Part shown: piece after piece, positions 714-9,681 of the stretch
How the letters are laid out: each line of letters starts with the position of its first letter
Numbering within the stretch: position 1 is the stretch's first letter
UHGV virus genome: UHGV-0238331
Strand: one strand, 5' to 3'
DNA length: 10,948 nucleotides
Source of the DNA: a virus
Notes under the pieces: generated by a model
Told to the model about the DNA's origin: nothing
The model's database searches: none
The model's input: only the letters and a program-made list of their open reading frames with translations
Program-made: the position numbers and the translations under genes

Positions 714-1025
714 TTATGCTACAGAGGAACAAGCTGGCGGGTAATTCAGCGTAGTGAATACCGGCATCTCCATCTTGTATGCGTAATGATACTCAGCAGT
801 TGCTCCAGCAGACGCTTTCCAGCCAGGAAGCATCAAAATAGCATCAGCACAACGAAGCATTGCAAAGCAAATATCCATGTATTCACGTTGTGTCAGACCA
901 TTAGGCAAAGTGGCTGGATTCAAGACAGAGTGACCATGTCGTGACAAACGATCTGCCTCTTTATTAAAGGCGTCACGATTAAAGTTCTCATATCCCGTCA
1001 TTGGCCCGGCAATATAAATTTTCAT
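714..1025 (-). CDS. DUF4406-like (nucleoside 2-deoxyribosyltransferase-like fold) protein, 103 aa
   Basis: ORF begins MKIYIAGPMTGYENFN...VLNPA...ADAILMLPGWKASAGATAEY, the pattern I associate with DUF4406 proteins. Co-oriented and 41 bp downstream of Rz. Family assignment is from memory. Confidence 0.55.
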   Translation of the reverse strand: MKIYIAGPMTGYENFNRDAFNKEADRLSRHGHSVLNPATLPNGLTQREYMDICFAMLRCADAILMLPGWKASAGATAEYHYAYKMEMPVFTTLNYPPACSSVA

Positions 1026-1066: not shown

Positions 1067-1504
1067 TTAATTCAGGCATTGCGTCTTGATGTATTCCTGC
1101 AAGTAGTTAACCTGCGCAGTTATCCTGTCGATCCCACTTCGGAGACGGTAATAATTGAGTTCAGCATCTGCTGTAAGTCTTGGGCTTTCTCCATTGCCCA
1201 TGCCGCTGGCTCCGGTCGTTGACTTTGCACAGGTGGCGGCGACTTGCAGGCGCTTACGCCCAGCAGAAACATCAGCACGGAGGCTTTCGATAGTCGCGTT
1301 AGCATCAGCAAGCTCCTTTGTATATCTGGCATCGAGTTCTGCTACGTCACGTTGACGCTTCTCCATATCAGCGATTGTGGATGTGGCTTTATCGCGCTGC
1401 TCTTTGTAGGCGATGGCGTTATCACGGTAATGATTAACAGCCCACGACAGGCAGACGATGATGCAGATAACCAGAGCGGAGATAATCGCGGTTACCCTGC
1501 TCAT
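1067..1504 (-). CDS. Rz: Spanin inner-membrane subunit Rz (i-spanin)
   Basis: [31 protein letters not shown]... matches the lambda Rz N-terminus. Start chosen at the ATG at 1504, which forms an ATGA overlap with the R stop; the track's upstream start at 1516 would add 4 residues. Confidence 0.9.
1120..1305 (-). CDS. Rz1: Spanin outer-membrane lipoprotein Rz1 (o-spanin), embedded in the +1 frame of Rz
   Basis: Embedded ORF with a signal peptide and lipobox ([20 protein letters not shown]), then a proline-rich segment ([18 protein letters not shown]) and an NSIITVSE motif resembling lambda Rz1. Start is taken at the internal Met preceding the signal peptide. Confidence 0.7.
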
Positions 1505-1998
1505 TGTTGACCCCACAAACAGACTTCACGCTCAATCTCACGACGAGTCATCAGGCCTTTCCATTGCTTACCGCCAGCATATATCCAGCGACGTAGCTGA
1601 TCACACGCACCTTTGATATCGCCCTGGTTTATTTTGCGAAGAAGCGTCGATGTTCTGAAATTACCAGCGCCCACGTTGTAAACGAACGAGTAAAGAGCGC
1701 CGCGCGTTGTTTCCGGTATATCGACTTTGATGTACGGGTTAATTTGTCTGGCGACCGTGGCAAGGTCTTTATTCAGGAGGGCTTTGCATTCTGCTTCGGT
1801 ATACGTTTTACCGGGAATGATGTCTTTTCCGGTGTGTCCGTGACATACAGTCCATACGCCAACGATATCTTTGTATGGTATGTAGCTGACACCTTCCAGA
1901 CCATCGTCACCACTCGGACCAGTGATGAGCACAGACGCTATGGCAACAGCCCCACCACCAATAGCAGCAGCAACAGCCTTGCGTAATGATGGCGACAT
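1501..1998 (-). CDS. R: SAR endolysin (T4-lysozyme-like muramidase with N-terminal signal-anchor-release domain), phage-21 R type
   Basis: N-terminal Gly/Ala-rich weakly hydrophobic SAR segment ([20 protein letters not shown]) followed by a lysozyme core ([24 protein letters not shown]...). Near-identical to phage 21 R as I recall it. Start overlaps the S stop (TAATG). Confidence 0.92.
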
Positions 1999-2213
1999 TA
2001 TTCACCTCTCGCAGCCTTACGCTTATCTTCTTTAATCTTGAAATAAAGGTTTGTCAGATACGTCAGCAGGCCAAACACCAGACTACCCAGCACACCTATT
2101 GCCGCCCACTGTGAGGGCGTGACTTTATCGAGCAGCTGTAAAAACCAGTAACCGGCACTACCTGCTGAGGTGCCATAGGCGACACCCGTTGTTAACTTAT
2201 CCATGGATTTCAT
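1998..2213 (-). CDS. S: Pinholin, phage-21 S type, with dual-start motif
   Basis: 71 aa, MKSMDK... gives two starts (Met1 and Met4) as in the S21 71/68 antiholin/holin pair. Two transmembrane segments ([18 protein letters not shown] and [23 protein letters not shown]) and a basic C-terminus ([13 protein letters not shown]). Confidence 0.9.
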
Positions 2214-2246: not shown

Positions 2247-2273
2247 GGAAATAAAAAGGCCACCTGCGTGGCC
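2247..2273 (-). terminator. Rho-independent terminator immediately after the methyltransferase gene
   Basis: Minus-strand RNA has a GGCCAC-GCAG-GUGGCC hairpin (2258-2273) followed by UUUUUAUUUCC. Sits between the methyltransferase stop (2280) and the S start (2213). Confidence 0.5.
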
Positions 2274-2279
2274 ACCAGA

Positions 2280-3332
2280 TTATTTCCCCACCAGCTCGTT
2301 TATCTCTTTCACTGTCTGGTTAAACCGCTCTGACTCAAGCTCAACACCTAAGGCCCGACGCCCCAGCGCCATTGCTGCTTTTATTGTGGAACCGGATCCC
2401 ATAAAGAAATCAGCAACCAGATCACCAGGTCGACTACTGGCATTGATTATTTGCCGGAGCATATCCGCCGGTTTCTCGCACGGATGTTTACCCGGGTAGA
2501 ACTGAACGGGCTTATGCGTCCAGACATCGGTATAAGGCACGGAGACTGATACGGAGAAATAGCGCCGGAGAGATTTAAACTCATCCAGCAATTCAGAATA
2601 TTTGCGATTCAGTGAATCATAAGATGCCACCAGCTGGTGGTGTGGTTGTTCCAGTTGTTGTTCCTGAAACTTCTCTGCCGCTATACGGGAAAACAGTGCC
2701 TGTAACTTCCGATAGTCAGCCTCATTCGGCAACTGCCACTGACTGGCACCAAACCAGTGGGAAACCATATTTTTCTTACCTGTAGCTTCGGCAATTTGTT
2801 TTGCCGTTATACCCAGTTCGGCACGAGCATCCCTGAAATACGATATCAGCGGTGCCATTATGTGCTGTTTGAGTTCCCTTTCTTTTGCCGCATAGCCGTC
2901 ATTTTTGGGCTGGTATGGCCCCTGATAATGTTCGGCAAACAGAATGCGCTCTGTTGCCGGGAAATACGCCCGCAGGCTTTCCTTGTTGCACCTGTTCCAG
3001 CGTCCTGACGGCTTCGCCCAGATAATGTGATTCAGCACATTAAAGCGTTCACGCATCATAATTTCGGTGTCAGATGCCAGGCGATGACCACAGAACAGGT
3101 AAAGACTTCCGGCGGGCTTCAGTACCCGCCAGAACTGCGCCAGACACTGGTCCAGCCATTTCAGGTAATCATCGTCCCCCTTCCACTGGTTATCCCAGCT
3201 CTCGGGCTTCACTTTAAAGTATGGCGGGTCTGTGACTATCAGATCGACAGAGTTTTCCGGTAAGGTCTGGATAAATTCCAGGCAATCAGCGTTGATTAAC
3301 TCACAACTGGATATTTTTACAGTATTAGCCAT
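2280..3332 (-). CDS. DNA methyltransferase, beta-class order (DPPY before the SAM motif); N6-adenine or N4-cytosine
   Basis: 350 aa. Motif IV DPPY near the N-terminus (DLIVTDPPYF) and motif I near the C-terminus (DLVADFFMGSGST), with a roughly 200-aa central region presumed to recognise the target. Located between Q/pR' and the lysis cassette. Confidence 0.85.
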   Translation of the reverse strand: MANTVKISSCELINADCLEFIQTLPENSVDLIVTDPPYFKVKPESWDNQWKGDDDYLKWLDQCLAQFWRVLKPAGSLYLFCGHRLASDTEIMMRERFNVLNHIIWAKPSGRWNRCNKESLRAYFPATERILFAEHYQGPYQPKNDGYAAKERELKQHIMAPLISYFRDARAELGITAKQIAEATGKKNMVSHWFGASQWQLPNEADYRKLQALFSRIAAEKFQEQQLEQPHHQLVASYDSLNRKYSELLDEFKSLRRYFSVSVSVPYTDVWTHKPVQFYPGKHPCEKPADMLRQIINASSRPGDLVADFFMGSGSTIKAAMALGRRALGVELESERFNQTVKEINELVGK

Positions 3333-3468
3333 AGATCAATAAGCGCTTCTCTGATAGGCTCATACCGCTTTTGCGCAAAGCAGATGGGCCTGAGGTTTGC
3401 TTGTGACCCCAACGCATGAGCAGATGGCTGGCAGGTGCCGCTAACACCCACCAGCCGCCCATTACCAC

Positions 3469-3496
3469 AAATTAAAAAGCCTTCACTGCGGAAGGC
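3469..3496 (-). terminator. Rho-independent terminator overlapping the 3' end of the small ORF
   Basis: Minus-strand RNA has a GCCUUC-CGCAGU-GAAGGC hairpin (3479-3496) followed by UUUUUAAUUU. Confidence 0.45.
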
Positions 3497-3680
3497 GTCT
3501 GTAACAACCGAACTGATAATCTGCCAGACCCGCCATAACAAGCTGGGTCAGTATTAACTGGCAGCGTTCACGTGAAAGGTAAGTATTCTGCGCAATTTCC
3601 CCGACGGTCGCTGGTTCGGTGACACTTAATTCATTAAATACCACTCTGGCGGTTTCGGTCATATCCTGCTGTTTTAGCAT
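3483..3680 (-). CDS. Hypothetical small protein (65 aa), possible winged-helix DNA-binding fold
   Basis: MLKQQDMTETARVVFNELSVTEPATVGEIAQNTYLSRERCQLILTQLVMAGLADYQFGCYRRLPQ. A purine-rich AAGGGAAAAAGAC stretch precedes the ATG at 3680. The track's longer 123-aa version would start inside the tR'-like terminator, so the shorter start is preferred. Confidence 0.35.
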   Translation of the reverse strand: MLKQQDMTETARVVFNELSVTEPATVGEIAQNTYLSRERCQLILTQLVMAGLADYQFGCYRRLPQ

Positions 3681-3803
3681 GTCTTTTTCCCTTTTCTGGT
3701 TAACGTGACATACCAATAACTCTTGTCGAAAAAGCCAGCAAGCTGAAAGACCTGTATTCGCAACCACCAGCGCGTTTAACGTTCTGTGCTGTTTTTCGGA
3801 CAC

Positions 3804-3826
3804 AAAAAAACCCGCCTGGTGACGGG
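3804..3826 (-). terminator. tR'-like intrinsic terminator downstream of the late promoter
   Basis: Minus-strand RNA has a CCCGUC-ACCA-GGCGGG hairpin (6 bp including one G-U pair) followed by seven U. It lies about 60 nt downstream of the pR'-like promoter. Confidence 0.55.
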
Positions 3827-3868
3827 CTGTAAAAATTCTTCTAACGTCAGGCATAAAACGCCCATCGT

Positions 3869-3904
3869 TAGTGCGAATTTACCACGGATTCGGGAAAAAT
3901 CAAC
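3869..3904 (-). promoter_or_regulatory. Late promoter pR'-like, with the Q-utilisation region expected just downstream
   Basis: On the minus strand: TTGATT (-35, complement of 3898-3903), 16-bp spacer, TAAATT (-10, complement of 3876-3881), then CGCACTAACGATGGGCG, resembling lambda pR' (TAAATT followed by TGACTCAACGATGGG). Begins 5 bp after the Q stop. Confidence 0.55.
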
Positions 3905-3908
3905 AACA

Positions 3909-4730
3909 CTATCGCGTTACCCTCTTTAACTGCCGCTCCGCCCATGCCTCCTCAATGTCAAACCGAACCACCAACGTATCGTAAAAACGCTTCACTGATT
4001 TTTTCCACGTATCAAGAGTGATAGCGCTCGTCACTTTGCATATGGCATTAAACGCCTCTGTTGACGGCAATCTTTCATAGCCACGACCACCACAACGCTG
4101 GCAGTCTCTGATAACAGGCATACCACGTTTTACCGACTCTTCACGATGAATGGCGACACCACGCCCACGGCAATCCTTACAGGCGGTGGAGACCTCACCC
4201 TTTCCCCCGCATTCAGGACAGGCAACTTTTACCACTTCCCGGACTTTTTTCCATTCTTCCCAGTAAGACGGATACACACCCTTTGTACACTTTGCCCATA
4301 CCGGCGGTTTACCATCCGGATACTGGACCTTGTTTGTAAAAACTACGCTTTCAATAAATTTTTCCCCATGGCAACAAGGGCACTGCTTTTTACTCGCTGC
4401 GCTGCGGGCATAATCCTCAAAAGCATACGAAGCCATAATGCGCATCACTGCCGGTTTTATTTCTGCCGGAAGTTTTCTTAACGCCGCCACGCGATCGCAC
4501 TGACTTAATGCATAATCTGCCAGTAATTCTGTTGCCCGCGCCCTGTCATTCATACTAATGCCCATTTTCCCCAGGAACGCAGAAAATCCCATCTCAGCAC
4601 GGTTTTGTGTCATACCCTGCGCAGCCATCACATCAGTGATACTCAGCGTATCTTTTGACGTCGAGACGGATGCATCAGTCAGGCCAGGCGATTTTGGGGA
4701 GTAGTATTTCGGTAAATCTTCCAGCTTCAT
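3909..4730 (-). CDS. Q: Late-gene antiterminator Q (lambda Q family) with an expanded zinc-finger region
   Basis: 273 aa. Clear blocks of similarity to lambda Q (207 aa) from memory: YSPKSP, TDVMAAQGM, ASYAFEDYARSAA, CQRCGGRGYERLPSTEAF, FYDTLVV. Start forms an ATGA overlap with the rusA stop. Confidence 0.85.
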   Translation of the reverse strand: MKLEDLPKYYSPKSPGLTDASVSTSKDTLSITDVMAAQGMTQNRAEMGFSAFLGKMGISMNDRARATELLADYALSQCDRVAALRKLPAEIKPAVMRIMASYAFEDYARSAASKKQCPCCHGEKFIESVVFTNKVQYPDGKPPVWAKCTKGVYPSYWEEWKKVREVVKVACPECGGKGEVSTACKDCRGRGVAIHREESVKRGMPVIRDCQRCGGRGYERLPSTEAFNAICKVTSAITLDTWKKSVKRFYDTLVVRFDIEEAWAERQLKRVTR

Positions 4731-6896: not shown

Positions 6897-6923
6897 ATAA
6901 AAACAAAAACCCGCCGAAGCGGG
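6897..6923 (-). terminator. Strong rho-independent terminator ending the AT-rich moron transcript
   Basis: Minus-strand RNA has a CCCGC-UUCG-GCGGG hairpin (UUCG tetraloop, 6910-6923) followed by UUUUUGUUUUUAUUUU. Confidence 0.75.
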
Positions 6924-7138
6924 TTAAGTGTGGGTGCGTTGAGGATGCCTGACACATGAGAGGTGGCGAGGGATTTCTCCCCCGCCTGGTCTCTTACTCC
7001 TCAGATTCGTAAGCTGTGAAGACAGCGACCTCCGTCTGGCCGGTTCGGATTCGTACCTCGCAGAGGTCTTTCCTCGTTACCAGTGCCGTCACTATAATAG
7101 TGATGCATATGATGATTAGGGTTTAAACCTCTCCGAAA

Positions 7139-9207: not shown

Positions 9208-9681
9208 CTATTTCATAAAAATAATCCAGTGGGTTTTATCGTTTTTTCCTGTTCGTTGACCGATAACAGGTTTTCTGTCGGTCAGTACCAATATCTGGCG
9301 AACAGGTATTTGCGTTTCATTCCATTTAAAAATCAGAACGCCGGATGGACGCAACACACGAAAGGCTTCTTTAAATCCCTGCCGCAAATCATCACGCTAG
9401 GTATCTTTATTCAGCCGTCCATATTTCTTTCCCATCCAGGCGTTATCACCAACACGCTCAAGATGCGGAGGGTCGAATATAACCATCGAAAAAGATGCGT
9501 CTGCAAATGGTAGTGCACGAAAATCAGCTATCAGATCAGGACTGATAATCAGACATCGTCCATCACACAATGTGTGCTCTTCCTTTCTGATATCGCTAAA
9601 TATCGCCAGGTCGTCATTCTTATTGAACCAGAACATGCGACTGCCACAGCACATATCAAGAATGGTTGCCGGTGCACTCAC
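9208..9681 (-). pseudogene. Small phage Dam-like SAM-dependent DNA methyltransferase interrupted by an in-frame amber (TAG) codon
   Basis: The 94-codon ORF (GTG start at 9681) carries motif I (ILDMCCGSR) and motif IV (DPPH) and stops at TAG (complement of 9397-9399). The same frame then runs 58 more sense codons (RDDLRQGFKEAFRVLRPSGVLIFKWNETQ...) to a stop at 9208-9210, giving about 153 codons in total. Confidence 0.6.

Follow-up and report, generated by a model that had tools for sequence, protein, structure and literature searches.

How can a temperate phage carry a DNA methyltransferase whose characterised relatives are harmful to the cell when made constitutively, and what would it gain by doing so? 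The question is raised by UHGV virus genome UHGV-0238331, analysed here as a single window (the whole stretch of DNA, 10,948 nt long), in which all genes lie on the minus strand and a gene for a 350-aa methyltransferase (2280-3332) is located between the late antiterminator gene Q and the lysis genes. A previous sequence-only reading had described this gene as a moron encoding an orphan beta-class methyltransferase and bracketed by intrinsic terminators. We find that the enzyme belongs to the M.EcoGI/M.EcoGII family and that its mRNA begins with a conserved, structured leader. The evidence makes it probable that the locus specifies a Q-gated methylase of the M.EcoGII type, produced from the late operon to protect progeny DNA from restriction, with the leader RNA as a putative second layer of control.

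The translated gene matches the Pfam family PF01555 (N6_N4_Mtase) over profile positions 1-220 of 221, with an E value of 4.8e-43 and a score of 148.1 bits against a cut-off of 26.7. The DPPY motif (residues 35-38, codons 3230-3219) precedes FFMGSGS (residues 309-315, codons 2408-2388), which corresponds to the beta-class motif order IV-TRD-I, where TRD is the target recognition domain. The nearest relatives in the PDB are likewise beta-class methyltransferases (such as RsrI, MboIIA and CcrM), which align in two blocks flanking the TRD; all of these matches are generic beta-class methylases, and a solved M.EcoGII structure is not among them. The Pfam match, the motif order and the positions of the Q and holin genes all agree with the earlier assignment of a 350-aa beta-class methyltransferase in the Q-to-S interval.

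Comparison with characterised enzymes places the protein more precisely. It is collinear with M.EcoGII over its full length, with 84% identity across 350 aa, and is 88% identical to the reconstructed ancestor Anc291 and 71% identical to the ancestral variant SUPREM. The M.EcoGII protein used here was taken from Table S1 of PMC11551740 after three optical character recognition (OCR) errors had been corrected against the DNA given in that paper; a tblastn search against the OCR-damaged M.EcoGII plasmid DNA (Table S2, PMC11551740) yielded fragmented, frame-shifted matches and no usable identity, and was set aside. Identity reaches 94% in the N-terminal catalytic half and falls to 72-78% in the linker, TRD and C-terminal parts. 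The methylase that occupies the same slot in Stx2_EH1910 is 94.8% identical to M.EcoGII. By sequence, the window enzyme is thus a prophage-borne member of the M.EcoGI/M.EcoGII family and therefore known and common rather than novel, sharing with its two namesakes a length of 349-350 aa, end-to-end similarity, the DPPY-TRD-FxGxG order and a prophage setting. The methylase itself is in this respect routine: it is another copy of a characterised, commercially used family, and of 5426 complete E. coli genomes, 2692 contain the gene together with its leader, some of them in as many as seven copies.

What has been reported for the family bears directly on the opening question. M.EcoGI and M.EcoGII are non-specific N6-adenine methylases from prophages of E. 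coli O104:H4 C227-11 and belong to a very large, prophage-borne family (Murray et al. 2018, PMC5778455). In the native strain both enzymes go unexpressed, and constitutive expression of either is deleterious, yielding slow-growing and unstable clones (PMC5778455). The role proposed by the same authors is to overcome host restriction (PMC5778455), and a 2025 review concurs; our literature search for in vivo anti-restriction tests of the M.EcoGII family returned this review statement alone. For the most part, M.EcoGII and its variants lack sequence specificity, and both DNA and RNA methylation have been measured for the two reconstructed ancestors (PMC11551740). From its similarity to M.EcoGII, Anc291 and SUPREM, the window copy would be expected to methylate adenine at the N6 position in any sequence context, to be silent in lysogens and to be toxic when made constitutively. 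Recognition of the family shifts the expected outcome of methylome sequencing from a motif to N6-methyladenine (m6A) throughout the genome on induction, and the motif anticipated by the sequence-only reading is probably not to be found, since the family consists of non-specific adenine methylases.

The position of the gene suggests how its expression could be confined to lytic growth. Q (273 aa, 3909-4730) matches the Pfam family PF03589 (Antiterm; E 2.3e-52), and in Stx2_EH1910 a Q of the same type, annotated quuQ, precedes the same methylase cassette. A PR′-like late promoter follows Q at 3864-3903 on the minus strand, with the -35 element TTGATT at 3903-3898, the -10 element TAAATT at 3881-3876 and AACGAT at 3869-3864. 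Alignment of the post-Q sequence with the Q-end/PR′ region of lambda and with the corresponding regions of Stx2_EH1910 and SfV reveals TTGAYT, GGTAAATT and an invariant AACGATGGG. We take AACGAT to be the counterpart of the lambda PR′ element that causes sigma-70 pausing and Q loading. A consensus scan for sigma-70 promoters had overlooked this site, which matches at eight of 12 positions.

A pattern scan for terminator-like hairpins located 22 sites in the whole window, compared with 10.9 +/- 3.3 in shuffled sequences. The top-ranked site (3799-3828, minus strand) combines an 8-bp stem (3828-3809) with the tract UUUUUUU, has a folding energy of -12.1 kcal/mol (z -1.89) and is conserved in Stx2_EH1910 and SfV. 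Because a PR′ with the pause element AACGATGGG lies upstream, as in the alignment with lambda, we interpret the hairpin at 3828-3801 as a tR′-like intrinsic terminator. The scan also recovers both hairpins that had been proposed to flank the methylase. The downstream one (2247-2273, minus strand; stem 2273-2258 followed by TTTTTATTTC) has the form GGCCAC-GCAG-GUGGCC plus UUUUUAUUU and an energy of -12.3 kcal/mol (z -2.05), and the SfV record has an annotated terminator at this position. The upstream one (3469-3496, minus strand; stem 3496-3479 followed by TTTTTAATTT) has an energy of -8.9 to -9.2 kcal/mol with z -1.16. The proposal of flanking terminators is therefore well borne out on the downstream side and weakly on the upstream side; the stronger tR′-like hairpin had been passed over, as had the conserved structured leader that separates this upstream hairpin from the start codon.

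The small open reading frame (ORF) that follows, the methylase gene and the lysis genes form one transcription unit downstream of tR′. The lysis cassette (1067-2213, minus strand) comprises an S21-type (P21-type) holin (1998-2213; PF04971), a lysozyme (1501-1998; PF00959) and Rz (1067-1516; PF03245). No sigma-70-like site was detected on the minus strand between Q and S (3909 to 2213) by the consensus scan, the same scan that overlooked PR′, and a dedicated sigma-70 promoter for the methylase was rejected on this result. The gene order is the same in SfV, in which terminators are annotated downstream of Q, at the place of the 3828 hairpin, and after the methylase. The cassette is arranged in the same way in cdtI and mEp460, and in Stx2a phages the block of Q, small ORF and methylase is followed by tRNAs and stx2AB. 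Across phage records and 80 species-level Enterobacterales loci, the gene is preceded by Q or small ORFs and followed by lysis genes; homologues of the lysis genes were found downstream in more than half of the 80 loci, with this window's proteins as the only queries.

These features suggest the following model. In the lysogen, transcripts initiated at PR′ would stop at tR′ and no methylase would be made, which fits both the reported silence of the family and the harm caused by constitutive expression. On induction, Q-modified RNA polymerase would read through all three hairpins, so that the methylase would be produced alongside the lysis and morphogenesis proteins. Replicated phage DNA would then be adenine-methylated without sequence preference before packaging, and progeny would gain generic protection against those type I, II and III restriction enzymes of the next host that are blocked by m6A. 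A Q-gated enzyme that methylates everything would counter m6A-sensitive restriction generically, and the gene adjoins stx in many Shiga-toxin phages. The proposed use of the lambdoid Q-PR′-tR′ slot has clear precedent: Q, the promoter-pause module composed of -35, -10 and AACGATGGG, the intrinsic terminator and the placement of cargo between tR′ and S are all shared with other lambdoid phages, and Q-dependent expression of late cargo has been established for stx (StxS study). The methylase cassette differs in having its own flanking hairpins and a structured leader.

It is this leader that could represent new biology. Conservation is striking throughout the 150 nt that separate the upstream hairpin from the methylase AUG, and the element itself is an untranslated 5′ leader of about 130 nt (3333-3462, minus strand). 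In a comparison of 80 species-level Enterobacterales loci, whose methylase proteins are 64-93% identical, the anchor GAAATGGGCG lies 130-134 nt from the AUG in almost every case, and nucleotide identity is 77% in the leader compared with 73% in the coding sequence. A covariance model of the leader matches the window at 3315-3476 with 141 bits; it matches 58 of 85 sources and all 76 metagenomic loci, with exactly one match per locus, always directly 5′ of the methylase gene and on the same strand. A metagenome search with an 18-base core of the leader returned 120 stretches, and the methylase lies 52-53 nt downstream in 114 of the 118 that could be assessed. The remaining four core occurrences are chance matches in which the rest of the motif is absent.

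The element is apparently undescribed and unannotated. A search of the whole window against the 4227 families of Rfam 15 (E <= 1) gave no match at 3333-3476, and no paper was found in a literature search with core sequence strings of the leader. The report on M.EcoGII (PMC5778455) describes neither a leader RNA nor a winged-helix partner, and the word 'upstream' is absent from its text. Conservation of an upstream ORF was considered and rejected as an explanation for the leader: a 47-aa ORF (3325-3468) ends 4 nt after the methylase AUG, and in related loci indels of 1 nt break its frame while the nucleotides stay conserved.

Two alternative secondary structures can be assigned to this RNA. The first, fold A, was evident when RNAalifold was applied to a plain MAFFT alignment of 53 distinct leaders, which produced a P0 stem (UGGGC/GCCCA), a long hairpin P1 and a P2 stem, with compensatory changes in 11 of 20 pairs. 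The covariance model was built on a four-helix structure, which in the window consists of P0 (3461-3457/3389-3385), P1 (3456-3426), P2 (3424-3396) and P3 (3383-3365), with P0, P1 and P2 meeting in a three-way junction. In the alignment fitted by the model, 89.5% of cells are paired, compared with 29-40% in controls with slid partners; 16 of 33 pairs show changes on both sides, and on all five measures the observed value is beyond every one of 500 shuffles. Covariation of the stems from genus to genus can be seen by eye. Moreover, the stems contain G-U pairs, which points to sense-strand RNA rather than a DNA palindrome.

The second structure, fold B, is the minimum free energy (MFE) fold of the window leader considered as a single sequence, which is not the covarying fold A. 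In fold B, AUGGGC (3462-3457) pairs with GCUCAU (3421-3416), the 5′ strand of P2, and thereby extends P1. The freed segment GGUCA-C-AAGC (3408-3399) then pairs with GCUU-AU-UGAUC (3344-3334), reaching to one base before the AUG. By alignment count, 99.4% and 93.8% of positions are paired in these two helices, with many one-sided changes that preserve pairing, and both strands of the helix occluding the ribosome binding site (RBS) are nearly invariant. When each fold was enforced on 57 distinct sequences, fold B had the lower energy in 44 and was the MFE structure in 38, and fold A was the MFE structure in 10; the mean energy gap between them was 3.5 +/- 5.2 kcal/mol.

The start region occluded in fold B carries no GGAGG-like canonical Shine-Dalgarno (SD) sequence, and UGAUC before the AUG is conserved. 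We take UGAUC to be complementary to GAUCA near the 3′ end of 16S rRNA, at a sensible spacing. Other pairings were examined and dropped, as no consistent compensatory changes were seen among variants for a local AUCAG/CUGAU hairpin before the AUG, for UGAGC with GCUCA, or for GAGCC with the 5′ strand of P1. An all-against-all column scan for additional covarying pairs was too noisy to use, and a stacked-helix filter recovered only P0-P3 and the two fold-B helices. The pairing of GGUCA with UGAUC was also considered as a pseudoknot formed on top of fold A; this was ruled out because it overlaps the top of P2, and it is this overlap that leads to a model with two mutually exclusive folds.

On the basis of conservation and energetics, the leader would be bistable, with a default state that blocks initiation. 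Pairing of GGUCA-C-AAGC with GCUU-AY-UGAUC immediately before the AUG would be the usual ground state, and formation of the three-way junction would free the start region, so that a cue able to shift the balance would permit translation. Candidate cues are the adjacent winged-helix protein, a metabolite or the kinetics of co-transcriptional folding. We put forward tentatively, as a serious possibility rather than an expectation, that the leader is a new class of cis-regulatory RNA: a two-state switch in which translation is off by default through pairing of the start region with GGUCACAAGC and on once the three-way junction gains stability. As trigger, one could envisage either binding of the RNA by the 65-aa winged-helix protein, on the pattern of SelB-SECIS or Com-mom, or a small molecule, for instance S-adenosylmethionine or S-adenosylhomocysteine. 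Like translational riboswitches and RNA thermometers, the element has a covarying multi-helix 5′ leader, an alternative fold that pairs the RBS and two folds that are close in energy. It differs from them in lacking an Rfam match and a canonical SD sequence, and its ligand or trigger is hypothetical.

Such a mechanism would have consequences beyond this locus. If the leader gates translation, it would explain how a dangerous enzyme can be carried safely and why the family is silent in native hosts. It would also be a very common but unrecognised riboregulator, present in about half of E. coli genomes, and would define a new RNA family across Enterobacterales as well as a compact, portable control element that is off by default.

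The protein candidate for the trigger is encoded immediately upstream (3483-3680, minus strand). The ORF is best read from the ATG at 3680, giving 65 aa, rather than as the 123-aa ORF obtained mechanically. It belongs to phrog_331 (E 1.4e-37), for which the NCBI name is 'TrmB family transcriptional regulator'. Searches with the sequence against PDB, NCBIfam and Pfam returned nothing significant; the sub-threshold Pfam matches are all to winged-helix families (TrmB, 0.0026, and others). An AlphaFold2 model computed from 25 homologues has a pLDDT value (predicted local distance difference test) of 92.8 and the topology H1-H2-H3-beta hairpin, and Foldseek matches it with probability 1.00 and TMq values of 0.7-0.8 (up to 0.81) to the winged-helix domains of OhrR, MarR, IclR and SelB. 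The product is thus predicted by structure modelling to have a winged-helix (MarR/TrmB-like) fold, in keeping with the sequence-only suggestion that a possible winged-helix ORF precedes the methylase. The winged-helix domains of SelB bind RNA hairpins. Homologues directly upstream of the methylase in SfV, Stx2, cdtI and mEp460 form two variants with 52% identity to each other, the N-terminal and helix-3 segments being invariant, and about 56 of the 80 species-level loci have a homologue in this position. This conserved partner gene, too, could prove of interest.

The UGA stop codon of the small ORF lies at the junction of the loop and the 3′ arm of the 3496-3479 hairpin. Almost every related locus has a hairpin ahead of the leader, in some cases followed by a U-tract and in others not, and the stem sequences differ; in all variants inspected (including L001-L004 and L085 onwards), the small-ORF stop nonetheless falls within the loop or 3′ arm of the next hairpin. 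As the stop codon is inside the hairpin, a terminating ribosome would cover it, and translation of the small ORF could modulate termination at this site.

The arrangement calls to mind the com-mom operon of phage Mu, in which, as described by Hattman and colleagues, a late, toxic, adenine-modifying anti-restriction enzyme is reportedly accompanied by a gene for a small nucleic-acid-binding protein of about 60 aa and by an mRNA leader that occludes the start. This may be the closest functional analogy to the locus, since both combine a gene for a small binding protein with a leader that would occlude the start and with a late, toxic enzyme that modifies adenine. The proteins are unrelated, however: Mom is not a SAM-dependent methyltransferase, and Com is a zinc-finger rather than a winged-helix protein. 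Mu also relies on the activator C and on Dam/OxyR instead of Q antitermination, and the winged-helix protein is only a candidate binder of the leader, its gene being absent in about 30% of loci.

Several observations weigh against parts of this proposal. The terminator role of all three hairpins is a prediction, and the upstream hairpin taken alone is weak, since many shuffled sequences fold equally well. The structural alignment behind the fold-A statistics was fitted by the covariance model itself, and the sequences are phylogenetically related. Fold B shows changes on both sides in one pair only, in three sequences, and rests mainly on conserved complementarity. Unrelated genes replace the winged-helix gene in about 30% of loci, and the winged-helix protein is therefore not an obligatory cis partner of the leader. 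In Xenorhabdus and Photorhabdus (L133-L164), a shorter leader, about 80 nt upstream of the methylase start, retains GAAAUGG and a P1-like hairpin without P0, P2 and P3; in these genera the small winged-helix ORF ends nearer the methylase gene, and the covariance model did not detect the shorter leaders. With regard to the enzyme, about 16% of residues differ from M.EcoGII, mostly in the linker, TRD and C-terminal half, and the TRD is only about 77% identical, so that an altered specificity of this copy is conceivable. Finally, transformation of E. coli is 10^4 to 10^5 times less efficient with plasmid DNA carrying 80% N6-methyldeoxyadenosine (m6dA) (PMC5778455), and heavy methylation may accordingly be costly to the phage. 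The level of methylation in vivo may be a trade-off, which would justify tight control of dosage.

An alternative to translational switching is that the leader is an element for RNA processing or stability, the source of a stable small RNA (sRNA) cut out of the late transcript, or a platform for binding that serves some other role; the start-region pairing would then be incidental. The long GC-rich hairpin P1 could be a site for RNase III or for a protein, and of the leader's parts it alone is retained in Xenorhabdus and Photorhabdus. It is known that sRNAs can arise from late leaders of prophages, as StxS does from PR′-tR′, and the lack of strong two-sided covariation in fold B is also compatible with this explanation. 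It would not, however, readily account for the fixed spacing to the AUG, the exclusive linkage to the methylase gene, the non-canonical start region, the near invariance of both strands of the anti-RBS helix or the similar energies of the two folds across 57 sequences. We judge it unlikely on this evidence.

The sRNA precedent concerns a neighbouring part of the locus. Short constitutive PR′ RNAs are Hfq-binding sRNAs in Stx phages, as for StxS, and the transcript predicted here from PR′ to tR′ (3799-3870, minus strand) is about 65-70 nt long, compared with 258 nt for StxS. Kinship to StxS was rejected, as the Q/PR′ type is different and the StxS paper makes no mention of methylases.

A second alternative concerns the substrate. 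The enzyme might act in vivo on RNA, for example by adding m6A to transcripts of the host or the phage in the lytic phase, or on single-stranded intermediates of replication or packaging. M.EcoGII is nearly as active on single-stranded as on double-stranded DNA and also methylates RNA and RNA:DNA hybrids (PMC5778455), and the window copy is closest to Anc291, whose RNA activity is about 10-fold higher than that of M.EcoGII (PMC11551740). Against this, the rate of M.EcoGII on RNA is about 100-fold below its rate on DNA (Table S3, PMC11551740), the authors of the M.EcoGII study and the later review favour protection of DNA from restriction, and the locus contains no pointer to an RNA target. An RNA or single-stranded substrate is very unlikely to be the main one in our view, and protection of double-stranded progeny DNA by a late-expressed enzyme is preferred.

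The label of moron invites a third alternative, in which a sequence-specific orphan methyltransferase is expressed from the prophage and acts as an epigenetic regulator of host or phage genes in the lysogen. Like a classical moron, the cassette has terminator-like hairpins on either side; in lambda, orf-64 alone lies between PR′ and S and the methylase gene is absent; and the TRD is the less conserved part in the comparison with M.EcoGII. The expected hallmark of autonomous expression is missing, as no sigma-70-like promoter ahead of the gene was recovered by the consensus scan. The characterised family members are non-specific and leave no methylation in the native lysogen, constitutive expression is deleterious, and the ground-state fold of the leader would sequester the start region. 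A true moron is highly improbable on these grounds. The term used by the sequence-only reading thus remains apt for an insertion that lambda lacks and that has its own downstream terminator-like hairpin, but not for a gene transcribed independently in lysogens. Of the two functions which that reading had suggested, anti-restriction during late transcription fits the evidence, and epigenetic regulation in the lysogen finds no support in a silent family, in hairpins placed after PR′ or in the scan for promoters.

It is scarcely conceivable that the gene is the modification half, or a remnant, of a restriction-modification system: the nearest solved relatives include beta-class methylases typical of such systems (such as RsrI, MboIIA and PvuII) and in one distant locus, L131, the gene is preceded by a large ORF that is type-IIG-like, but no endonuclease-like ORF was found in the window, related loci are flanked by Q or small ORFs and lysis genes, and a non-specific methylase could have no meaningful cognate endonuclease. 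The earlier description of the gene as an orphan is thus upheld. No endonuclease family was found with Pfam and phrog profiles among the window's other ORFs, which encode an O-like replication protein, a Ren-like protein, a small second methylase, P63C, DUF968/HNH, RusA, DUF4406 and small unassigned phage proteins. The ORF of L131 (L131:207-2678, Rosenbergiella collisarenosi) encodes 823 aa with an N-terminal methyltransferase-like motif, GQFMTP; it takes the place of the small ORF directly upstream of the leader and the methylase gene, and is possibly a type IIG enzyme.

In megablast comparisons, mosaic boundaries coincide with the hairpins that flank the cassette, and the match to cdtI, mEp460 and Ayreon begins exactly at the upstream hairpin 3469-3496 (query position 532). 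A further junction lies near the methylase start: the leader (3315-3476) is closest to the Stx2_EH1910 type (93-95% identity), whereas the coding sequence (2280-3332) is closest to the cdtI/mEp460 type (92%, compared with 80% for Stx2_EH1910).

Elsewhere in the window, a DUF4406 gene (714-1025, minus strand; Pfam E 3.7e-34), which is nucleoside 2-deoxyribosyltransferase-like, directly follows Rz and is another accessory gene of the late region. The Rfam scan produced a sole match, a weak one to the Hfq-binding sRNA isrK (6904-6985, minus strand; 25.9 bits against a gathering score of 50, E 0.027), which ends at a strong terminator-like hairpin (6925-6908) within an inter-ORF gap of about 360 nt in the nin-like region. 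The early region carries the second small methyltransferase gene (9208-9681, minus strand; phrog_954/11564), with DMCCGS and FDPPH motifs. An in-frame TAG (9399-9397) splits it into ORFs of 94 and 59 aa, and it is either a nonsense pseudogene or a gene dependent on amber suppression or readthrough.

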